64,000 nt of DNA from Escherichia coli (GCF_022846255.1 NZ_AP025682.1), one strand, 5' to 3'; numbered from the stretch's first letter, positions 2,599-35,318 are shown. Made by a program: numbers and translations. The notes: a model not told the origin generated them from the sequence alone.

Positions 2599-3555
2599 TC
2601 AATACCCCATATTTTTCTTCTTCTCTAACTCTTCTTTTGCGGTATCAGGCAGATAAAGGGTGGATTTGGTCAGCGTTAGCTTTTCAGGCATGGTGCCGTC
2701 TTTTTTGTATTTCTCCAGCGCGTCGAAAGCAGGACCTGCCATGTTCGGCGTCAGTTCAACGCTGGCGTTCGCTTCGCCATCAATCATCGCTTTGTAGATG
2801 TCCGGCACGCCGTCGATAGAGCCTGTCAGGATATCTTTGCCCGGTTTCAGGCCCGCTTCTTTAATTGCCTGAATTGCACCAATCACCATGTCATCGTTAT
2901 GGGCGTAAACCATGCAGATGTTTTTGCCGTTGTTTTCCGCTTTGATAAAGCTCTCCATCACTTCTTTGCCTTTGCTGCGGGTGAAGTCACCTGACTGCGA
3001 GCGGATAATTTTGATATTTGGCGCATTCTTTATGGCTTCGGCAAAGCCTTTCTTACGGTCAATGGCGACGCTGGCCCCAACGGTGCCCTGTAACTCAACC
3101 ACGTTACATGGTTTGCCGTTAACCTCTTTCACCAGCCAGTCACCGATCAACTTACCTTCGAGGATGTTGTCGGCAGTAACGGTGGTCATATAGAGAGATT
3201 TGTCTTTCACATCGATGGAACGGTCAAGCAAGAAGACCGGGATTTCGGCATCTTTCGCCTCTTTTAATACCGGTTCCCAACCCGTCGCCACCACCGGAGC
3301 GATAAAGATCGCATCCACCCCTTGTGCGACGAAGGAACGTACCGCTTTAATCTGGTTTTCCTGCTTTTGCTGACCATCGGCAATTTTCAGTGTGATACCG
3401 CGTTTTTCGGCTTCACTTTTCGCCACATTGGTTTCTGCGGCGCGCCAGCCGGATTCCGATCCGACCTGCGAAAATCCTACGGTTAATGGAGCGGCCAACG
3501 CCATAGACGACATGGCTGCCGAGACTGCAGAGACTACAAGTAAGCGTTTCCACAT
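2599..3555 (-). CDS. ytfQ: Galactofuranose-binding periplasmic protein YtfQ
   Basis: 318-aa ORF with N-terminal signal peptide (MWKRLLVVSAVSAAMSSMALA) and periplasmic sugar-binding protein fold signature; upstream of ytfR. Confidence 0.93.
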   Translation of the reverse strand: MWKRLLVVSAVSAAMSSMALAAPLTVGFSQVGSESGWRAAETNVAKSEAEKRGITLKIADGQQKQENQIKAVRSFVAQGVDAIFIAPVVATGWEPVLKEAKDAEIPVFLLDRSIDVKDKSLYMTTVTADNILEGKLIGDWLVKEVNGKPCNVVELQGTVGASVAIDRKKGFAEAIKNAPNIKIIRSQSGDFTRSKGKEVMESFIKAENNGKNICMVYAHNDDMVIGAIQAIKEAGLKPGKDILTGSIDGVPDIYKAMIDGEANASVELTPNMAGPAFDALEKYKKDGTMPEKLTLTKSTLYLPDTAKEELEKKKNMGY

Positions 3556-3864
3556 AGGGTTGTCCTCGTCGGGGTAATTATTATTGGTGAAAAGATGTTC
3601 GCGAAAAAACTATAGACAATTCGTTATGTAACGGATTGCGTTACATCACACTTCAAAAAAGTAAATAAAACGTTAATCACAAGTTTGTAATCGCTTTCAT
3701 CTCACTATGAAAAATGCGGCTACGGTTATGGATTTTCCTGCTCTGTATACCGTCTTAAAACTGGCGAAAAAGGAAAATGAAGACGAAAACAAGCGAAGAC
3801 ATTCGGCGCGAGTTGGCTATAATACTCGGCACTTGTTTGCCACATATTTTTAAAGGAAACAGAC

Positions 3865-4395
3865 ATGAGCTTACTCAACGTCCCTGCGGGTAAAGATCTG
3901 CCGGAAGACATCTACGTTGTTATTGAGATCCCGGCTAACGCAGATCCGATCAAATACGAAATCGACAAAGAGAGCGGCGCACTGTTCGTTGACCGCTTCA
4001 TGTCCACCGCGATGTTCTATCCGTGCAACTACGGTTACATCAACCACACTCTGTCTCTGGACGGTGACCCGGTTGACGTACTGGTCCCGACTCCGTACCC
4101 GCTGCAGCCGGGTTCTGTGATCCGCTGCCGTCCGGTTGGCGTACTGAAAATGACCGACGAAGCCGGTGAAGATGCGAAACTGATTGCTGTTCCGCACACC
4201 AAGCTGAGCAAAGAATACGATCACATTAAAGACGTTAACGATCTGCCAGAGCTGCTGAAAGCGCAAATCGCTCACTTCTTCGAGCACTACAAAGACCTCG
4301 AAAAAGGCAAGTGGGTTAAAGTTGAAGGTTGGGAAAACGCAGAAGCCGCTAAAGCTGAAATCGTTGCTTCCTTCGAGCGCGCCAAGAATAAATAA
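3865..4395 (+). CDS. ppa: Inorganic pyrophosphatase
   Basis: 176-aa ORF, translation matches E. coli Ppa ([38 protein letters not shown]...). Confidence 0.97.
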
Positions 4396-4749
4396 GTTCT
4401 TCTGGCGTAATAACCCTGAACGCCGGGCTTCGGTTAGTAGGGGTTTTTTTATGCCCGCAATTTATAAACTCTCTACTCCACTATTATTATTTTCAGCAGT
4501 TTAAAGGCTTGAACGGTAAGAACAAGCTAAACTCGACCACCATTTTGCTGTTCATAGCCACTTGCTGGAAGTTAGCCGGCCTCACTCATACTCACCGTTC
4601 AAAGCGTGTCCCCGTTTTACCCCTGTACATTTGTTAACGCCAGCAGAGTTTTACATGCGTTAACGGATATGGAAAGCGGCTCGGAAGGAAAAGCAAAAGG
4701 CGAGGAAGTTACAAAAAAGAATACGCGTCGTCTCGCAAAAAAATAACGC

Positions 4750-4761
4750 CACCCGCAGGTG
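4750..4761. repeat. IS4 target-site duplication (left copy), cacccgcaggtg
   Basis: 12-bp direct repeat identical to 6188-6199, immediately flanking the IS4 terminal inverted repeats. Confidence 0.85.
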
Positions 4762-6187
4762 TAATGCCGATCAGTTAAGGATCAGTTGACCGATCCAGTG
4801 GCTGTGTAAGAATCCGGAAACGCTCACTTGTTTCCGGATTTTTTTATGCACATTGGACAGGCTCTTGATCTGGTATCCCGTTACGATTCTCTGCGTAACC
4901 CACTGACTTCTCTGGGGGATTACCTCGACCCCGAACTCATCTCTCGTTGCCTTGCCGAATCAGGTACTGTAACGCTACGCAAGCGCCGTCTTCCCCTCGA
5001 AATGATGGTCTGGTGTATTGTTGGCATGGCGCTTGAGCGTAAAGAACCTCTTCACCAGATTGTGAATCGCCTGGACATCATGCTGCCGGGCAATCGCCCC
5101 TTCGTTGCCCCCAGTGCCGTTATTCAGGCCCGCCAGCGCCTGGGAAGTGAGGCTGTCCGCCGCGTGTTCACGAAAACAGCGCAGCTCTGGCATAACGCCA
5201 CGCCGCATCCGCACTGGTGCGGCCTGACCCTGCTGGCCATCGATGGTGTGTTCTGGCGCACACCGGATACACCAGAGAACGATGCAGCCTTCCCCCGCCA
5301 GACACATGCCGGGAACCCGGCGCTCTACCCGCAGGTCAAAATGGTCTGCCAGATGGAACTGACCAGCCATCTGCTGACGGCTGCAGCCTTCGGCACGATG
5401 AAGAACAGCGAAAATGAGCTTGCTGAGCAACTTATAGAACAAACCGGCGATAACACTCTGACGTTAATGGATAAAGGTTATTACTCACTGGGACTGTTAA
5501 ATGCCTGGAGCCTGGCGGGAGAACACCGCCACTGGATGATACCTCTCAGAAAGGGAGCGCAATATGAAGAGATCAGAAAACTGGGTAAAGGCGATCATCT
5601 GGTGAAGCTGAAAACCAGCCCGCAGGCACGAAAAAAGTGGCCGGGACTGGGAAATGAAGTGACAGCCCGCCTGCTGACCGTGACGCGCAAAGGAAAAGTC
5701 TGCCATCTGCTGACGTCGATGACGGACGCCATGCGCTTCCCCGGAGGAGAAATGGCGGATCTGTACAGTCATCGCTGGGAAATCGAACTGGGATACAGGG
5801 AGATAAAACAGACGATGCAACTGAGCAGGCTGACGCTGAGAAGTAAAAAACCGGAGCTTGTGGAGCAAGAGCTGTGGGGTGTCTTACTGGCTTATAATCT
5901 GGTGAGATATCAGATGATTAAAATGGCGGAACATCTGAAAGGTTACTGGCCGAATCAACTGAGTTTCTCAGAATCATGTGGAATGGTGATGAGAATGCTG
6001 ATGACATTGCAGGGCGCTTCACCGGGACGTATACCGGAGCTGATGCGCGATCTTGCAAGTATGGGACAACTTGTGAAATTACCGACAAGAAGGGAAAGGG
6101 CCTTCCCGAGAGTGGTAAAGGAGAGGCCCTGGAAATACCCCACAGCCCCGAAAAAGAGCCAGTCAGTTGCTTAACTGACTGGCATTA
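4762..6187 (+). mobile_element. IS4 insertion sequence, complete (1426 bp) with 18-bp imperfect terminal inverted repeats
   Basis: Left end taatgccgatcagttaag, right end cttaactgactggcatta (reverse complement taatgccagtcagttaag); length 1426 bp equals canonical IS4; encloses the IS4 transposase ORF; flanked by 12-bp direct repeats. Confidence 0.92.
4846..6174 (+). CDS. insG: IS4 transposase (InsG), DDE family
   Basis: Translation from ATG at 4846 ([28 protein letters not shown]...) matches IS4 transposase; ORF track start at 4828 is a TTG extension. Confidence 0.92.
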
Positions 6188-6199
6188 CACCCGCAGGTG
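6188..6199. repeat. IS4 target-site duplication (right copy), cacccgcaggtg
   Basis: Identical to 4750-4761. Confidence 0.85.
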
Positions 6200-6213
6200 G
6201 CGTGCTTTTATTA

Positions 6214-6555
6214 TTACTTATCCCTGTCTAACCAGTCGCCGCTTTCAATTAGCTTTAATCCATCGACGGGTCGTTGATAAACGTACATCCATGCACTCCC
6301 GTACGGCGTCTGAATCAACTGGCGCGCGTATTCACCGCCCCTGGTGCGCAAGGCATCAAGTTCGGCCAGCGTGGCGTTGTCAATACGATAAACTTCACCG
6401 TGTACTGTTCCGTTCCCCGGAACTGCGCCTGGATAGTGGCCCAGGCTATACAACTGGTAGTTATCGATACTGAAATCGCCCAGTAACTGGGCATTGGTCA
6501 TCCAGTGACTGTTGCCTTGTTTGTGGCGTAAACTGCCGTAGACAAATATTCGCAT
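6214..6555 (-). CDS. ytfP: Gamma-glutamylcyclotransferase-family protein YtfP
   Basis: 113-aa ORF (MRIFVYGSLRHKQGNSHWM...) with YGSL motif typical of GGCT/AIG2 fold; downstream of tamB. Confidence 0.93.
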   Translation of the reverse strand: MRIFVYGSLRHKQGNSHWMTNAQLLGDFSIDNYQLYSLGHYPGAVPGNGTVHGEVYRIDNATLAELDALRTRGGEYARQLIQTPYGSAWMYVYQRPVDGLKLIESGDWLDRDK

Positions 6556-6557
6556 TG

Positions 6558-12229
<5,672 letters not shown>

Positions 12230-27646: not shown

Positions 27647-28423
27647 ATGAGTGACCAACCCGTTCTGTTCAGCAGAGCGGCGGCTTCTTGCCGCCTGACA
27701 TTGAACCGTGAAGATAAATGTCATGCTATTAATGAAGAAATGATCGAATCTCTCGACCATTATTTAAATGAAATTGAAAATGACACGGCATTACGCTTAG
27801 TCGAATTAACGGCAACCGGCGATAAATTCTTTTGTGCGGGCGGCGATATTAAATCGTGGTCGGCCTATTCGCCATTAGATATGGGCAGAAAATGGATTAA
27901 ACGCGGTAATGACGTTTTTAATCGCCTGCGCAACTTACCCCAATTAACCGTTGCGAATCTCAACGGTCATACCATCGGTGGCGGTATTGAACTTGCCTTG
28001 TGCTGCGATATTCGTATCGCTCGCCCCGGCGCGAAATTCTCTAACCCGGAAGTGATGCTCGGCATGGTGCCAGGCTGGATGGGCATTGAGCGAGTGCTTA
28101 ATCAGGTTGGTCCTGTGGTCGGTCGCCAGATGCTGATGCTGGGTAAACGCCTGACGGCGCAGGAAGCTCAGACAGCGAATTTAATTGATGAAGTGGTAGA
28201 AAAAGAACAGGTGGAAAGCTGGATGGCGAACCAGTTAGCGCAGCTGGAAAAATGTGGTCCGGTGGCACTGGCACATATTAAGCAACTGATTCTGGCGCTG
28301 GAAAATAAACACGCCGATTACTCCCACCAGTTACTGGCTGGATTAATGTCCGCCACTCAGGATTGCCAACAGGCGACGCACGCATTTGCCGAAAAAGCCG
28401 GCGTGAGCTTCCACAATCAATAA
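27647..28423 (+). CDS. Enoyl-CoA hydratase/isomerase (crotonase-fold) family protein
   Basis: 258-aa ORF with crotonase motifs (FCAGGDIK; NGHTIGGGIELALCCDIRIA); AAGGA RBS. Confidence 0.85.
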   Translation: MSDQPVLFSRAAASCRLTLNREDKCHAINEEMIESLDHYLNEIENDTALRLVELTATGDKFFCAGGDIKSWSAYSPLDMGRKWIKRGNDVFNRLRNLPQLTVANLNGHTIGGGIELALCCDIRIARPGAKFSNPEVMLGMVPGWMGIERVLNQVGPVVGRQMLMLGKRLTAQEAQTANLIDEVVEKEQVESWMANQLAQLEKCGPVALAHIKQLILALENKHADYSHQLLAGLMSATQDCQQATHAFAEKAGVSFHNQ

Positions 28424-28432
28424 GGAAATTGT

Positions 28433-29974
28433 ATGCGTAAGTTATCAACCGCCGAGACACTGGCGGCGCAAATTCAGGACGGCGCAACCATTGCCATTAG
28501 CGGCAACGGCGGCGGTATGGTGGAAGCTGACCATATTCTGGCCGCCATTGAAGCGCGCTTTCTGCAAACCGGACACCCGCGCGATCTGACATTAATCCAC
28601 TCGCTGGGTATTGGCGATCGCGACAGCAAAGGCACTAACCGTTTTGCTCACGCCGAAATGCTCAAACGCATTATTGCCGGACATTTTACCTGGTCGCCCA
28701 AGATGCAGGAACTGGTGAAAAGCAATGCTATTGAAGCCTACTGTTTCCCTGGTGGCGTAATTCAGGCACTGCTGCGGGAGATCGGTGCCGGACGTCCGGG
28801 GCTTTTTACCCACGTTGGGCTGGGATCGTTTGTTGATCCACGCAATGGTGGCGGTAAGTCGAATGAATGCACTACCGACGACCTGGTAGAACTGATTGAA
28901 ATCGACGGTGAGACCAAACTTCGTTATCGCCCTTTCAAAGTGGACTACGCGATTTTGCGCGGCACCTATGCCGATCCGCGTGGCAACGTCAGCCTCGAAG
29001 AAGAGGCGATTGATATGGATAGCTATTCGATGGCGCTGGCAGCACACAACAGCGGCGGCAAAGTGTTCGTACAGGTCCGCGATGTGCTGGAAGCAGGTAC
29101 CATTGAACCACGTCGGGTCAAACTACCAGGAATTCTGGTCGATGGCATCGTTGAGCACCGCGAACAACCGCAAACCTATCTTGGTGGTTACGACCTGACG
29201 ATCAGCGGTCAACATCGCCGTCTAAGTTCTAACGACGCTATTGAACTGGTTAGTCATCCGGTGCGTCGCCTGATTGCCCGTCGGGCAGCGCGGGAACTGG
29301 TGGCAGGCGCTTCAACCAACTTTGGCTTTGGTATTCCCGGCGGTATTCCTGGGGTTGCACTGCGCGAAGGCGTGCCTTATCAAAGTTTGTGGCTGAGTGT
29401 AGAACAGGGTGTACATAACGGCATGATGCTGGATGATGCTCTGTTCGGCTGCGCCCGTAACGCCGATGCCATTATTCCATCACTCGATCAATTCGAATTC
29501 TACAGTGGCGGCGGTATCGATATCACCTTCCTCGGCATGGGAGAGATGGATCGGTACGGTAACGTCAACGTATCCCATCTCAATGGCAATCTCATTGGCC
29601 CCGGCGGCTTCCTCGAAATTGCGCAAAACGCCCGTAAAGTGGTGTTCTGCGGTACGTTTGACGCCAAAGGCAGCAAGATTGATGTAACGCCTGATGGCCT
29701 GCATATCGCCCAGTCAGGTCAAATCCCCAAACTGGTTACCCAGGTGGAAAAAATTACTTTTAGCGCCGCATACGCACAGCAAAGCAGTCAGGAAGTGCTG
29801 TATATCACCGAACGTGCGGTATTCCAGTTAACGGCAGAAGGCGTTGAATTAATTGAGATCGCCCCTGGCGTAGAGATTGACCGCGACATTCTGCCGTATA
29901 TGGCCTTCCGTCCGATTATCAGGCACCCACGCCTGATGGAAAGTAGCCTGTTTACGCCAATGGAGGATGCATGA
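28433..29974 (+). CDS. Family I CoA-transferase, fused alpha/beta type (YdiF-like acyl-CoA:acetate CoA-transferase)
   Basis: 513-aa ORF with glycine-rich N-terminus (ATIAISGNGGGMVEADHIL), resembles E. coli YdiF-type short-chain acyl-CoA transferases; AAGGA RBS. Confidence 0.8.
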   Translation: MRKLSTAETLAAQIQDGATIAISGNGGGMVEADHILAAIEARFLQTGHPRDLTLIHSLGIGDRDSKGTNRFAHAEMLKRIIAGHFTWSPKMQELVKSNAIEAYCFPGGVIQALLREIGAGRPGLFTHVGLGSFVDPRNGGGKSNECTTDDLVELIEIDGETKLRYRPFKVDYAILRGTYADPRGNVSLEEEAIDMDSYSMALAAHNSGGKVFVQVRDVLEAGTIEPRRVKLPGILVDGIVEHREQPQTYLGGYDLTISGQHRRLSSNDAIELVSHPVRRLIARRAARELVAGASTNFGFGIPGGIPGVALREGVPYQSLWLSVEQGVHNGMMLDDALFGCARNADAIIPSLDQFEFYSGGGIDITFLGMGEMDRYGNVNVSHLNGNLIGPGGFLEIAQNARKVVFCGTFDAKGSKIDVTPDGLHIAQSGQIPKLVTQVEKITFSAAYAQQSSQEVLYITERAVFQLTAEGVELIEIAPGVEIDRDILPYMAFRPIIRHPRLMESSLFTPMEDA

Positions 29975-32043
29975 GTCAGCTTGATGAGGCCATCCTTGAT
30001 GCACTGACACACGTTACTTTCCCAAAGGGTTTTGCACAGGCAGAACCCGCATGGGTTGTCACGGTAGACGGTGTTGATTACCCACTCTGGAAAACAGATG
30101 CCCTGGTAGTCGGCAGTGGTGCAGCCGGGCTACGTGCAGCTGTGGAACTTAAACGCCGCCAGCAAAATGTGTTAATCGCCACCGCCGGGTTATATATGGG
30201 GACATCGGCATGTTCTGGCTCTGATAAACAAACACTGTTTACCGCCGCTACCGCGGGCAACGGCGACAACTTCGCCAAACTGGCAGAGGCACTGGCGAGC
30301 GGTGGGGCGATGGATCACGACACCGCTTATGTTGAAGCGGTAGGTTCTCTGCACACTCTTGGCGGGTTGCAATATCTTGGTCTGGAATTACCGGAAGATC
30401 GCTATGGCGCGATTCTTCGTTATCAAACCGACCATGACGAAGCCGGGCGTGCAACCTCGTGTGGGCCGCGTACCTCAAGGTTAATGGTGAAAGTGCTGCT
30501 GGAAGAAGTACAGCGTCTTGCTATCCCAATGTTGGCCAGTGCAACAGTGATTAAACTGCTGCATCAGCGTGACGAAAACGGTGAAGACCGTGTGGCGGGG
30601 GCAATCCTCGCGACCGGTCATCGCGCCCATAACCCATGGGGGCTGGCAATTGTGACTGCGCCCAATGTGGTACTGGCAACAGGCGGGCCTGGCGAGCTTT
30701 ATCGCGACAGTGTGTATCCACACAAATGTTTCGGCTCGCTGGGGCTGGCGCTGGAGGAAGGTCTGACGTTAACGAATCTGACTGAAAGCCAGTTTGGTAT
30801 AGGCACACCGCGCAGCACGTTTCCGTGGAATTTGTCCGGCACCTATGTACAGGTGATCCCATATATCTATTCCGTGGATGCCGGGGGCAACGAGTATAAC
30901 TTCCTCGCGGATTACTATCGCACCACCCAGGAGCTGGCTTCAAACATTTTCCGTAAAGGCTATCAGTGGCCGTTCCACGCCACGCGGGTAATGGATTTTG
31001 GCTCCAGCTTGTTAGATATGGCAGTAGCGCAAGAGCAGCAACATGGTCGTCAGGTATTTATGGATTTCAATCGTAATCCAGAACCTGTGCCGGGTGACCT
31101 ACCGTTCTCATTAGATCGACTGGACGACGACGTTCGCGCGTATCTGGAAAATAACGACGCTCTGGCACCATCGCCCATCGAACGCCTGCAACAAATGAAT
31201 CCTCTGTCTATCTCGCTGTATAAGATGCACGGTTACGATCTCATCACGCAGCCATTGCAGTTTGCCATGAATAATCAGCACATGAATGGCGGCATTGAAG
31301 TCGATATCTGGGGACAAACATCTCTGCCCGGTTGTTTTGCGGTGGGGGAAGTTGCTGGCACACACGGCGTCACCCGACCTGGCGGCGCGGCGTTGAATGC
31401 CGGGCAGGTTTTTGCTGTTCGTCTGGCGCGCTTTATTGGTTGCACGCAAAAGCGGAATATTGATGGAGATATTGCACAGCTGGCAGCTCCGGCACTGGCT
31501 TCTATAAGAGAGATCATTACTCAGGCGCACGATAACGGGTCCGGGATGCCGTTGTCGGTTGTGAGAGAAAAAATTCAGGCACGAATGTCTGACTATGCGG
31601 GATTTATTTGCCATGCCGATAAAGTCCGACGTGCCACTCGTGATGCCCTGCTATTGAACGAATTTGTCCAACGACATGGATTGGCAATCAAACATGTGGG
31701 TGAAGTTGCCGAGCTGTTTATGTGGCGGCATATGGCGCTGACTTCTGCCGCGGTATTAACACAATTAACGCATTATATTGATGCTGGTGGTGGTAGCCGT
31801 GGGGCGCGTATGGTTATTGATCCACAAGGCAAATGCCTACCACAAACTCGTCGCGGCGCAAAAGAAGAATGGCGTTTTCGCTCTGAACTCGCTGAAGACA
31901 AAAATCACAAATTAACAATTCAATATTCGCAAGGTTCTTTTATTACCGAAGTAAAGTCTTTACGTATGCAACCGTGTATTAACGGTATTTACTTTGAAAA
32001 AAACTGGCCAGACTTTTTAAAGGGAGACATTTACACACAATAA
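29971..32043 (+). CDS. FAD-dependent oxidoreductase, fumarate reductase/succinate dehydrogenase/L-aspartate oxidase flavoprotein superfamily, with long C-terminal extension
   Basis: 690-aa ORF; dinucleotide-binding motif (DALVVGSGAAGLRAAVEL) and C-terminal FAD-binding signature (CFAVGEVAGTHGVTRPGGAALNAGQVF); start ATG overlaps upstream stop (ATGA); GGAGG RBS. Confidence 0.8.
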   Translation: MSQLDEAILDALTHVTFPKGFAQAEPAWVVTVDGVDYPLWKTDALVVGSGAAGLRAAVELKRRQQNVLIATAGLYMGTSACSGSDKQTLFTAATAGNGDNFAKLAEALASGGAMDHDTAYVEAVGSLHTLGGLQYLGLELPEDRYGAILRYQTDHDEAGRATSCGPRTSRLMVKVLLEEVQRLAIPMLASATVIKLLHQRDENGEDRVAGAILATGHRAHNPWGLAIVTAPNVVLATGGPGELYRDSVYPHKCFGSLGLALEEGLTLTNLTESQFGIGTPRSTFPWNLSGTYVQVIPYIYSVDAGGNEYNFLADYYRTTQELASNIFRKGYQWPFHATRVMDFGSSLLDMAVAQEQQHGRQVFMDFNRNPEPVPGDLPFSLDRLDDDVRAYLENNDALAPSPIERLQQMNPLSISLYKMHGYDLITQPLQFAMNNQHMNGGIEVDIWGQTSLPGCFAVGEVAGTHGVTRPGGAALNAGQVFAVRLARFIGCTQKRNIDGDIAQLAAPALASIREIITQAHDNGSGMPLSVVREKIQARMSDYAGFICHADKVRRATRDALLLNEFVQRHGLAIKHVGEVAELFMWRHMALTSAAVLTQLTHYIDAGGGSRGARMVIDPQGKCLPQTRRGAKEEWRFRSELAEDKNHKLTIQYSQGSFITEVKSLRMQPCINGIYFEKNWPDFLKGDIYTQ

Positions 32044-32135
32044 TTTTCAATATTTCCTCTGTACCTGATTTTTATTGCCTATTACATGGAAATACCAACA
32101 ACCAGGGTTTATTAATATAATTAAAAGGTTTAAAA

Positions 32136-33413
32136 ATGAATAAAATAAAGAATTATCGATGGCATATGATTGCCCTCGTATGCTTTATCACTGTAATCAA
32201 TTATCTGGACAGAACGGCGTTAGGTATTGCGGCTCCAACGATTATGGAGACAACCGGAATAACCAAAGAACAATATTCATGGATTGTCAGTGCATTCCAG
32301 TTGGCCTATACATTGGGGCAACCGATAATGGGCTTCTTTATTGATACCGTGGGTCTGAAGTTAAGTTTTGCGATATGTGCCGCAATCTGGGGCCTGGCGA
32401 CAATGGGGCATGCCTTGACAGGAACATGGTCAGGTCTGGCATTTATGCGCGCCCTGATGGGTTTCAGCGAAGCATCGGCAATTCCTGCGGGTGTAAAAAC
32501 CGCATCAACATGGTTCCCGGCAAAAGAGCGTGGCGTGGCGACAGGTGTATTCAATATGGGTACCTCACTCGGCGCGATGCTTGCTCCACCGTTGATTGCC
32601 TGGTGCATTATGTTTCATAGCTGGCAATTTGCGTTTATTGTCTCAGGTAGCCTTGCTTTACTCGCGGCTTTATTTTGGTTCTTTTGTTATAAAGATCCAA
32701 AAGATGCTAAACGCCTTTCTGATGAAGAGCGCCACTATATTGAGTCTGGGCAAGAACAGCATCTTAAAACAGATAAGAAAGAAAAAACGTCAATCAAGCA
32801 TATCCTCAGCCAACGTAATTTCTGGGGGATTGGCATCGCGCGTTTTCTCGCTGACCCGGCATGGGGAACCATTAACTTCTGGGTACCGATTTTCTTCGTC
32901 GAAACGCTGCATTTTAGCCTGAAAGAAATTGCCATGTTCGTCTGGCTGCCTTTCCTGCTGGGCGATCTCGGCTGTTTAGCCAGTGGTTTTGTCGCGAAGT
33001 TCTTCCACGATCGCGGCGTGAGTTTAATTAACTCACGAAGAATTACCTTCACTATTGCAGCCGTCATTATGATGACGATTGGTCTGGTGAGTATTGTCGA
33101 AAATCCCTACATCGCCGTATTACTGATTAGCATTGGCGCATTCTCGCATCAATGTCTTTCTACTGTTGCAGCAACTCTGGGCGGTGACCTATTCAAAAAA
33201 GACGAAGTAGCTACCGCTGTGGGTATGGCAGGAGCCTGTGCATGGAGCGGTCAGTTGATTTTCAACCTGTTTATCGGGGCATTCGTTCACATTATTGGCT
33301 TCGCGCCGTTCTTTATTGCCCTGGCTTTCTTTGACATTATTGGCGCCATTGCGCTGTGGATGCTTATCAAAGTTAAAGACGAAGAACCACAAGTACAGTT
33401 AGCGACAAGCTAA
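32136..33413 (+). CDS. MFS transporter, anion:cation symporter (ACS) family (hexuronate/aldonate-type)
   Basis: 425-aa 12-TM ORF with MFS signature (YLDRTALGIAAP; GxLxDRxG-like loop), resembles ExuT/DgoT-type organic anion permeases. Confidence 0.85.
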   Translation: MNKIKNYRWHMIALVCFITVINYLDRTALGIAAPTIMETTGITKEQYSWIVSAFQLAYTLGQPIMGFFIDTVGLKLSFAICAAIWGLATMGHALTGTWSGLAFMRALMGFSEASAIPAGVKTASTWFPAKERGVATGVFNMGTSLGAMLAPPLIAWCIMFHSWQFAFIVSGSLALLAALFWFFCYKDPKDAKRLSDEERHYIESGQEQHLKTDKKEKTSIKHILSQRNFWGIGIARFLADPAWGTINFWVPIFFVETLHFSLKEIAMFVWLPFLLGDLGCLASGFVAKFFHDRGVSLINSRRITFTIAAVIMMTIGLVSIVENPYIAVLLISIGAFSHQCLSTVAATLGGDLFKKDEVATAVGMAGACAWSGQLIFNLFIGAFVHIIGFAPFFIALAFFDIIGAIALWMLIKVKDEEPQVQLATS

Positions 33414-33422
33414 TTATTTTAC

Positions 33423-33464
33423 ATAGAAACGCTATAATTTAGCTTTGTAGCGTTTCTATTTTTC
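33423..33464 (+). terminator. Rho-independent terminator after MFS transporter gene (possibly bidirectional)
   Basis: Perfect 11-bp stem atagaaacgct ... agcgtttctat followed by tttttct. Confidence 0.6.
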
Positions 33465-33555
33465 TCATAAATTAAACGTCTCTTCCAAAACGTTCAGTAT
33501 CTACTGGCATTGCTTCGCAAATTTATGATTTAGCGAATATATCTAAATAACTATT

Positions 33556-34824
33556 CTAAATTGCCCCCCTGAACGCCTCTGCCATTAACTCTTGCTCACG
33601 ACCAGGTAATCGAAGACGCTCGGCAATGATTCGCCACTGACTGACAATCCCTCTAAAATTAGCAATAATGTCATCTGCTTCTGTCAAACCAAGTCGAAAA
33701 TAATCCACAACTTCTCGAGCTAATTCCAAATCAAGTGCATTATCATTTTCTGTAATATTGAGTTTTAGACCGTCAGACCTGGCAACAGGATTCAAATCAT
33801 ATGCCTCAGAAAGCCGCCAACCTTTTCCCGGTATCAAGATATATCCATGATTACGTAAATGGTCATCGGTATTAGAAACAAGAATATTAAAAACAATCCT
33901 GGACCAGAGTTCCTTAAGGTCAGTATTAGTCTGCGCTCCATGTCTGATAAGAACATCTGCTAATTCCAGATAACTCACACCTGTAGAGGCATCTTCACCA
34001 TCCTGATGCCTGGTTAGTGTCATAGCCGAAGCAAAATGCAGACGCCTTCCCGCATTAGTGCGGTCAAAACGACGAACCATAAAACAATGGTAATTGCTGG
34101 CAAATTTATGCGCCTGAGCAGGTGCAACATTCAGTCCACAGCCAACAGCAAGTGCATTAACGACCATTTCCCATCCACCAACATCATACTCATCTTTTAC
34201 ACTGGGAAATTTAGCGATGTAGAGATACCCAGCTTCATCAACAACACTGGCTTTCGGACGTGTCCCCCCTAATGATCCCCCCGGAGCGATTAGCATTCTT
34301 AACCATTTTTGCCCCATTAGCTCTTTATTATCAGGATCTTCTTCAATTGCCCGGCTAGCCCTTTCCAGACTCGCTATTTCGGTAAATGGTGGGGCTGCAA
34401 CATCAATGCGATTATCAAGAAACTCTCCAGCGTCTTCACGTTTGTATCGAAGAGCCCCAACCCGATAAAGATCATGAACACCTAGTAGATAATCAGACTC
34501 ATAAAGGTGGGAGTCTTTATCACATAACCCGTCTCGAATATCCCTCTCAAAACGACGCTTCATTAGCATACGCCCCCAACGATCCGGGCAGGAATCACTA
34601 AATGCACCAAATTTATCCTTTGGAGGAATTGGGTACTGTGCTCCCTCATACAACATTATTTCAGGATCTAACTGAATGAAATTAAGTGAAGGATCTGCAA
34701 GCGCCTTTTTATCGTACTCAAACTCAAATATCTCACGCGTCCGAGTGCGGCGACTGTGTAAATAACCAATCCGCTCCGGACCATCCAGGCCTTCCCAATC
34801 CGCATACACTCCGATTAATGCCAT
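33556..34824 (-). CDS. HipA-family serine/threonine kinase (type II toxin-antitoxin toxin candidate)
   Basis: 422-aa ORF; HipA N-terminal motif (FSDSCPDRWGRMLMKRR resembles HipA FDNLLPDSPIVRDRIVKRY), glycine-rich loop (IAPGGSLGGTRPKASVV), catalytic motif (LVSNTDDHLRNHGYIL); AAGGAAA RBS; starts 2 nt after upstream HTH gene stop. Confidence 0.85.
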   Translation of the reverse strand: MALIGVYADWEGLDGPERIGYLHSRRTRTREIFEFEYDKKALADPSLNFIQLDPEIMLYEGAQYPIPPKDKFGAFSDSCPDRWGRMLMKRRFERDIRDGLCDKDSHLYESDYLLGVHDLYRVGALRYKREDAGEFLDNRIDVAAPPFTEIASLERASRAIEEDPDNKELMGQKWLRMLIAPGGSLGGTRPKASVVDEAGYLYIAKFPSVKDEYDVGGWEMVVNALAVGCGLNVAPAQAHKFASNYHCFMVRRFDRTNAGRRLHFASAMTLTRHQDGEDASTGVSYLELADVLIRHGAQTNTDLKELWSRIVFNILVSNTDDHLRNHGYILIPGKGWRLSEAYDLNPVARSDGLKLNITENDNALDLELAREVVDYFRLGLTEADDIIANFRGIVSQWRIIAERLRLPGREQELMAEAFRGAI

Positions 34825-34826
34825 AA

Positions 34827-35318
34827 TTAATTTCCTTTTAACGGTTTTTTTATCGGTTTTAATAGTGCTGCAAGAGAGGTTGATGTTTCTCCTGTAATAG
34901 ATGGCGTTGAGCCTTCTGCCAGTGCTGTTAAATCCGTGGTGAGTAAACCTTCTTTCTCATACCTCGTTTGAAAAGGGTCTGTCTGAATACCTTCTTCATT
35001 TTTACCTGATGAACGAGAAAGCCCTCTTTTTTTAATCAAACGGGAATCCTGGAGCTGACGCCCTAAGTCGTCTTCAGCTGCAAGCTTATTTAAATCCGTT
35101 TCCAGGCCCAAAACCTGCATCACAGACAAATATGCCCCTATCGTGACCCCTGCACTTCCTGACTCCAGAGAGCGCAATGTTATTGGCGACATCCCAGCAC
35201 GTTCAGCAACTTGCTTTGCGGTAAGCCTGCGTCGTAAACGAGCAAGTTTCAGCCGCTCACCAAATTCACTAAGCATCTGATTCGTATAAGGGAGTAACGG
35301 TGCTGTTTTTTTACCCAT
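34827..35318 (-). CDS. XRE-family HTH protein, HipB-like antitoxin candidate with ~90-aa Ser/Thr-rich C-terminal extension
   Basis: 163-aa ORF; HTH_XRE region ([32 protein letters not shown]); immediately upstream of and co-oriented with the HipA-like gene; no clear SD at the first ATG, alternative start at Met15 (35276) possible. Confidence 0.75.

Follow-up and report, generated by a model that had tools for sequence, protein, structure and literature searches.

A probable relic of the chpS-chpB toxin-antitoxin operon beside an IS4 insertion in the ppa-ytfP interval of Escherichia coli

A close described counterpart of the locus considered here is the chpS-chpB operon (chpSB, also called chpBIK) of Escherichia coli K-12, a type II toxin-antitoxin system of the MazEF family that occupies the interval between ytfP and ppa. 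The gene content of this interval is known to vary. In the passage that Pastorello et al. 2013 (mBio, PMC3735183) devote to the ytfP-ppa locus, chpBS is reported in 53%, the gene esiB in 15%, and neither in 32% of 47 genomes, with esiB flanked by short direct repeats of partial inverted symmetry; as far as that passage goes, the locus and its three states are the same as those found here. Another chromosomal type II system, ccdO157, decays within E. coli (Mine et al. 2009, as cited in PMC2654758), and variable toxin-antitoxin distribution in this species is ascribed to recent integration in the pertinent part of PMC2654758. The chpBS pair has also been linked, as an accessory pair, to healthcare-associated bacteraemia isolates (PMC6096937). 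We analyzed a stretch of 64,000 nucleotides (nt) from one strand of E. coli GCF_022846255.1 (NZ_AP025682.1), hereafter the window, in which the ppa-ytfP interval (4396-6213) carries the insertion sequence IS4 and no intact chpSB.

In the record of K-12 strain MG1655 the gene order is tamB-ytfP-chpS-chpB-ppa-ytfQ, and the window shows this neighborhood in reverse orientation. An earlier reading of the window, made from the sequence alone and referred to here as the sequence-only reading, had placed chpS and chpB between ytfP and ppa in K-12, as the MG1655 record confirms. It had also described the interval in the window as a short non-coding stretch plus IS4, and this description holds, with 366 bp of spacer followed by an IS4 of 1426 bp.

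We conclude that this spacer is very probably a non-functional relic of a chpS-chpB operon that formerly stood at the site. Searching the window by tblastn with K-12 ChpB and ChpS gave a single significant match, to ChpB, which runs from 4568 to 4479 on the minus (syntenic) strand and covers residues 19-48 with 18/30 identities (60%), one in-frame stop codon, and E = 1e-5; the matched stretch translates as PASGYEQQNGGRV*LVLTVQAF. With K-12 chpSB DNA as the query, the sole blastn match in the whole 64-kb window was 4569-4501, at 83% identity and E = 1.1e-14. The empty site, rebuilt by removing IS4 and one copy of its target duplication, is a spacer of 380 bp, which was aligned to the 886-bp ytfP-chpS-chpB-ppa interval of K-12. 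Three blocks of this IS4-free spacer align with the K-12 interval colinearly and on the same strand: positions 1-74 (95% identity, E = 2e-30) match the ppa terminator and the chpB-ppa spacer, positions 106-174 (83%, E = 9e-17) match chpB nt 54-122, and positions 218-370 (88% over 153 nt including a hairpin, E = 2e-51) match the distal ytfP-chpS intergenic region and the ytfP terminator. Colinear blocks on the correct strand point to descent from chpSB at the syntenic ytfP-ppa site, and the 4501-4569 match recurs in other relic alleles in the correct strand and order. In genomes with chpSB, megablast recovers no part of the spacer other than the first block, 4396-4469.

The gaps between the three colinear blocks suggest that two deletions account for the difference in size. 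In the better-preserved alleles the relic corresponds to K-12 forward coordinates 3-162, ~498-601 (chpB nt 42-145), and ~797-886 (the spacer preceded by the final ~11 nt of chpB), and the chpB stretch in E. albertii and in strain SCPM-O-B-8794 is likewise homologous to nt 42-145. Relative to K-12, ~195-215 bp are gone from within chpB, and a second stretch of ~310-335 bp is missing that held the 5' end of chpB, the whole chpS gene, and the 49 bp preceding the chpS ATG. These two deletions would have destroyed the operon. The terminators on either side survive, as do the distal part of the upstream region and ~70-100 nt of chpB, interrupted by a stop codon; we infer that the toxin gene was hit first, as the viable route. 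At the first joint, K-12 homology in the E. coli B and SCPM-O-B-8794 alleles runs through the last ~11 nt of chpB (TTATTCCACCA), where the window allele is more diverged. At the second joint, 4591-4603 may correspond to chpB codons 7-11 (12/13 nt, a match that is weak alone). The chpB fragment is missed by default tblastn in the E. albertii and SCPM-O-B-8794 relics but is detected there by DNA alignment and blastn.

What remains cannot encode either the toxin or the antitoxin. Of the intact toxin (~116 amino acids, aa; PemK/MazF fold), only ChpB residues ~19-48 are recognizable, with an in-frame stop codon and no start codon. For ChpS (~83 aa, an AbrB/SpoVT-type antitoxin), no match anywhere in the window was better than E = 0.06 and none fell in the spacer, and in the alignment chpS is wholly deleted. 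With the 49 bp before the chpS ATG missing, the promoter/operator segment is not retained either. In other genera with chpSB, the DNA becomes homologous to that of K-12 from about -34 relative to the chpS ATG, a point inside the part deleted from the relic, and the deleted segment probably held a conserved chpS promoter/operator. Compared with K-12 chpS-chpB, the relic thus occupies the same site on the same strand with 83-95% nucleotide identity in the remaining blocks, but it has neither the antitoxin gene nor the promoter-proximal region, keeps ~20-30% of the toxin gene with a stop codon, and is not a functional member of the family. No intact chpS or chpB open reading frame (ORF), and no other ChpB- or ChpS-like match, was found within the window, where chpSB is functionally absent from the ppa-ytfP site. 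The sequence-only reading had reported neither a ChpB/ChpS-like ORF nor any remnant, and had singled out 4396-4749 as the segment in which a remnant would tell against it. Its statement stands for intact ORFs but fails for remnants, since tblastn and blastn both place the degraded chpB fragment (4501-4569) within that very segment. The features of the locus are collected in Table 1.

Table 1. Features of the ppa-ytfP locus and of the hipBA-like pair, in window coordinates
Feature	Positions	Strand	Remarks
ytfQ	2599-3555	-	left neighbor of ppa
ppa, inorganic pyrophosphatase	3865-4395	+	176-aa ORF; left flank of the locus; equal to the annotated ppa of strains GF130 and C25 at 531/531 nt
Non-coding spacer	4396-4761		366 bp between ppa and IS4
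ppa intrinsic terminator and homologue of the K-12 chpB-ppa spacer	4396-4469	+	95% to K-12 over 74 nt; folds as hairpin followed by U-run
AT-rich joint over the first deletion	4470-4500	-	retains a trace of the chpB 3' end (final codons and stop)
Predicted chpB pseudogene fragment	4501-4569	-	K-12 chpB nt 54-122, codons ~19-41, in-frame stop
Diverged joint over the second deletion	4570-4612	-	from global alignments
Homologue of the distal K-12 ytfP-chpS intergenic region	4613-4745	.	88% identity block
Left part of the ytfP terminator hairpin, split by IS4	4746-4761	-	left target duplication 4750-4761
IS4, complete	4762-6187	+	1426 bp; transposase ORF 4846-6174, 442 aa
Right target duplication, rest of hairpin, gap to ytfP stop codon	6188-6213	-	duplication 6188-6199; hairpin rest 6200-6203
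ytfP	6214-6555	-	113-aa ORF; right flank of the locus; 100% nucleotide identity to E. coli B ytfP
tamB	6558-10337	-	adjoins ytfP
HipA_C kinase	33556-34824	-	422 aa; Pfam HipA_C 154.8 bits (cut-off 30.5), E = 3e-45
Helix-turn-helix (HTH) protein	34827-35318	-	163 aa; Pfam HTH_31 E = 7e-11; ends 2 bp before the kinase gene start

The relic is a common allele. In a census of 5426 complete E. coli genomes, the relic spacer (the 365 bp to the left of IS4) was found in 2315 and chpSB in 3098. In both searches the median number of places per genome was one. The sum is 5413, and the locus looks like a near-clean dimorphism of relic versus chpSB at ~43:57, as judged from two separate genome-wide counts; E. 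coli B has the relic and K-12 the operon. By gene content the same genomes divide into 57% with chpSB, ~3% with esiB, and ~39% with neither. The breakpoints are the same in all relic alleles aligned, namely those of the window, E. coli B, FDAARGOS_1259, STEC299, GF130, C25, 'E. coli' SCPM-O-B-8794 (a separate GTDB species representative), and the E. albertii type strain. The empty, IS4-free spacers of E. coli B, FDAARGOS_1259, and C25 measure 379-380 bp and all alleles measured fall within 379-381 bp, while the relic alleles diverge from one another by 10-16%.

The window allele is 99.7% identical to that of STEC299, which carries esiB. In STEC299 and GF130 esiB, a 1.47-kb gene for a secretory immunoglobulin A-binding protein with Sel1 repeats, stands between the relic and ytfP in an islet of ~1.65 kb (STEC299 locus 3366-5035; GF130 locus 5889-7569) that is bracketed by two hairpin copies, with loop CGCA on the left and CGAA on the right. 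The state of the window could therefore be a second step, in which esiB was lost from an esiB haplotype by recombination between the bracketing hairpin copies, and we regard this as a serious possibility that falls somewhat short of an even chance. Besides the near identity to STEC299, it would be in keeping with the direct hairpin repeats, which also appear in the locus passage of Pastorello et al. 2013 (PMC3735183), with the number of genomes holding spacer alleles of at least 95% identity (169), which is about that of esiB carriers (~187), and with the observation that C25 is the only complete genome combining the window-type relic allele with an empty site. Yet the state of the window could just as well predate the arrival of esiB, the repeats are short (~20 bp), and the window holds no trace of esiB, with no tblastn match to EsiB. 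The association between allele and esiB, moreover, is one of similar counts and two examples.

To judge the age of the relic, its identity was set beside that of four-fold degenerate sites in the flanking genes. Between the window and E. coli B the relic is 88% identical and the four-fold sites of ppa, ytfP, and tamB, pooled, are 93% identical. Between the window and E. albertii the relic is 84% identical, with four-fold identities of 84-87% in ppa and ytfP and 64% in the adjacent tamB 3' region. Since relic identity is close to that of the flanking four-fold sites, the relic fits roughly neutral evolution. The deletion allele would then be either old or moved across species by recombination, and the lower identity in tamB than in ytfP/ppa may reflect local interspecies exchange or a codon-bias constraint in ppa. 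In the scheme we favor, the deletions would predate the divergence of the E. coli relic alleles, with the relic present also in E. albertii and now standing beside the intact operon in E. coli. A further proposal treats relic and intact operon as an ancient polymorphism across E. coli, E. albertii, and other Escherichia, in which balancing selection keeps both alleles, or alleles are continually exchanged at a cargo hot spot with the near-invariant ytfP hairpin as its anchor. We hold this to be unlikely, though worth stating; if it is true, the patchy occurrence of chpSB among isolates would reflect old loss and allele shuffling and not recent horizontal gain.

Persistence since before the E. 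coli relic alleles split, at a constant size of 379-381 bp, might also suggest that the relic has been retained for an acquired function, for example as a small RNA, by encoding a small protein, or by insulating the convergent ppa and tamAB-ytfP units from each other. We consider this very improbable, as the relic diverges as fast as or faster than the neighboring four-fold sites. Scanning 3500-6700 against Rfam (E <= 1) gave no RNA family in the relic, and a consensus promoter scan of the spacer returned matches at chance level only. The sole small ORF, which starts at 4606 or 4671 and ends at ~4746-4748, is frameshifted or altered in other alleles and was rejected as a gene. The Rfam scan also returned a sub-threshold hit for the ribosomal S15 leader at 4330-4386, within the ppa coding 3' end, which was taken as chance (17.9 bits, E = 0.54; gathering score 39.5).

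The distribution of chpSB outside E. coli bears on which state came first. One genome per species was scanned with YtfP as the query, and the loci fetched were then searched by tblastn and blastn. Intact chpSB stands at the same position in E. whittamii, two other Escherichia species, 'E. coli' E69, a Lelliottia sp., Enterobacter asburiae, two Pseudocitrobacter, Kluyvera genomosp. 1, and isolate RIT691; in loci with intact chpSB, chpS starts 213-218 bp past the ytfP stop codon, and the ChpS and ChpB proteins from outside Escherichia share 63-78% aa identity with those of K-12. This occurrence at an identical position in several genera indicates that presence of chpSB is ancestral and absence derived, a conclusion that can be considered secure for Escherichia and only probable for anything older. 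Independent relics, with breakpoints unlike those of the Escherichia relic, were also found. The one in Citrobacter sedlakii (fetched locus 4340-4687) keeps the upstream region and the chpB 3' end, and the one in Enterobacter cloacae DSM 26481 (fetched locus ~6050-6170) keeps the promoter and the chpS 5' end, near ppa and unrelated cargo.

If, on the other hand, the lineage had never held chpSB, the spacer would be ordinary intergenic DNA, in line with the missing intact ORF, with the many genomes that have neither chpSB nor IS4, and with the short, clean spacers of 100-170 bp in many other genera. This is a highly improbable account, given that the spacer holds a chpB fragment and the chpS-upstream region in the right order and strand and is ~380 bp long, against ~100-170 bp at sites without a trace of chpSB, and we reject it on the chpB homology detected by blastn. 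The sequence-only reading had taken the absence of chpSB to be probably the native state of this lineage. Should this mean that the lineage never had the operon, it is contradicted by the remnant in the spacer, the same relic in E. albertii, and the intact chpSB at the same position in several genera.

Several points nevertheless weigh against descent from an ancestral chpSB by old deletion. The chpB fragment of the window allele measures only 69 nt, and divergence at the joints prevents base-exact placement of the breakpoints. The E. albertii relic could come from interspecies recombination, as the contrast in four-fold identity between ytfP/ppa and tamB would allow, and the patchy distribution of chpSB among genera could mean horizontal replacement via the conserved flanks instead of strict vertical descent.

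Across the Enterobacteriaceae the ytfP-ppa gap is a conserved cargo hot spot. It measures ~100-170 bp when empty and 0.9-3.9 kb when occupied. Apart from chpSB, its cargo includes a TonB-dependent receptor with a beta-propeller protein in several Citrobacter, Hcp or Hcp-DUF6883 fusions in C. youngae and Salmonella arizonae, a chemoreceptor in Silvania confinis, and three small proteins without a Pfam match in Enterobacter cloacae. ORFs of the same size as the chemoreceptor occur in S. hatchlandensis and Enterobacter soli (a match in size only), and ORFs equal in size to the three small proteins occur in Enterobacter mori.

IS4 appears to be a later arrival with no part in the loss of chpSB. 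The element has imperfect terminal inverted repeats (17/20 terminal bases matched between its two ends) and a transposase of the NCBIfam IS4 family (NF033592, 304.5 bits against a cut-off of 115). A perfect target duplication of 12 bp, CACCCGCAGGTG, stands on both sides of it, at 4750-4761 and 6188-6199. In length, ends, transposase family, and duplication it agrees with the IS4 prototype in ISfinder (1426 bp, duplications of 11-13 bp), and nothing about it is unusual. That IS4 caused the loss, by adjacent deletion or by IS4-IS4 recombination, is suggested by its position in the very interval where chpSB is missing, but we give this essentially no credence and reject it, because the duplication is intact, the spacer without IS4 matches those of the IS4-free strains, 2315 genomes hold the part left of IS4, and IS4 is found at this site in a single further complete genome, GF130, where the variant is a different one. 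The sequence-only reading was accordingly right both that the target duplications are intact and that no IS-mediated deletion removed chpSB.

IS4 has entered the intrinsic terminator of ytfP at its loop and inner stem. When rebuilt, the hairpin reads ACGCCACC-CGCA-GGTGGCGT, with a folding energy of -17.6 kcal/mol, and is followed on the ytfP strand by UUAUUUUUUU, the U-run. This hairpin (~28 nt; K-12 fetched locus 1747-1774) is 89-100% identical in nearly all Enterobacteriaceae loci fetched, far above the surrounding intergenic DNA; in a few of them (L013, L014, and L019) it lies ~130 bp further from ytfP. We compared six IS4 sites (the window, the same site in GF130, mug-rpoD, tynA-feaB, fumC-fumB, and galP-metK), and all are terminator-like hairpins by gene 3' ends, with an A-run, a GC-hairpin, and a T-run. 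The duplications at the sites examined are 12-13 bp long and span the inner stem and loop. As all six sites are of this kind, the choice of site in the window is typical for IS4. An older target consensus for IS4 is AAA-N20-TTT, with which the six sites are compatible; our literature search on IS4 target choice gave nothing.

A copy 100% identical to the IS4 of the window stands at mug-rpoD in strain 675SK2. In GF130 an IS4 occupies the very same nucleotide of the ytfP hairpin as in the window, yet these two copies disagree at 14/1426 positions, which indicates two independent insertions. We considered descent of the window from a GF130-like ancestor with the arrangement relic-IS4-esiB and ruled it out on the same 14 differences and on the identity of the window copy to one at another locus in another strain. 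The exact arrangement of the window had no match among the complete E. coli genomes searched. In our scheme a later, independent transposition would have placed IS4 in the ytfP hairpin, duplicating 12 bp and deleting nothing. The insertion moves the ytfP U-tract 1.4 kb away from ytfP and splits it from the hairpin. An inward-facing terminator-like hairpin is present at the right end of IS4 (6183-6158), and it probably takes over termination of tamAB-ytfP.

Elsewhere in the window, the sequence-only reading had noted a hipBA-like pair about 30 kb away, and a HipA_C kinase with an upstream HTH gene is indeed found ~29 kb from the ppa-ytfP spacer. The same genes in strain LF82 are annotated by RefSeq as a HipA-family toxin and an HTH protein, and the pair occurs in 1040/5426 genomes. 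No HipA N-terminal domain was found in the kinase at the Pfam threshold, and the NCBIfam YjjJ equivalog model scores 37 bits against a cut-off of 401. The pair is thus not predicted to be an equivalog of K-12 HipA or YjjJ, 'hipBA-like' is the right level of naming, and its toxin-antitoxin role is a predicted one. It belongs to an accessory block (27647-35318) that adjoins rplI and also encodes an enoyl-CoA (coenzyme A) hydratase, a CoA-transferase, an FAD (flavin adenine dinucleotide)-binding oxidoreductase, and a major facilitator superfamily (MFS) transporter. The segment 33400-35500, with the end of the MFS gene and the hipBA-like pair, occurs in 1040/5426 E. coli genomes, and LF82 shares 99.8% identity with it. 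A phylogroup B2 background is suggested by the sequence.

The finding is ordinary and largely known. Presence/absence polymorphism at ytfP-ppa was already published in 2013, and the additions made here, namely the chpB relic, its age, and the conserved cargo site, are modest. Relative to the passage on the locus in PMC3735183, what is new is a chpB relic in genomes with esiB or with neither gene, together with E. albertii and other genera and the IS4 in the repeat, none of which that passage contains. No description of the chpB relic was found in the literature searched (open-access text only). As far as the account of ccdO157 introduced above goes, that system shares with chpSB the degeneration of a chromosomal type II system within E. 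coli, with inactive copies in part of the population. The two differ in that ccdO157 belongs to the CcdAB family and sits at another locus, whereas the chpSB relic is of the MazEF/ChpBIK kind. The ccdO157 study reportedly found many independent inactivating mutations; the chpSB relic, in contrast, would be a single old deletion allele with fixed breakpoints, common to E. coli and E. albertii.

The practical value of these results is small, and the site is better annotated as a chpB pseudogene relic plus IS4 than as a clean absence. Our data show terminator hairpins as IS4 targets and the ytfP-ppa gap as a conserved cargo site. For association studies such as PMC6096937, chpSB would mark one of two old haplotypes at the locus. 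An ancestral presence of chpSB would run against the inference of recent integration, as given in the pertinent part of PMC2654758, at least for chpSB. The presence or absence of a chromosomal toxin-antitoxin system can stem from one old deletion allele that stands beside the intact operon, and recent acquisition is not required.

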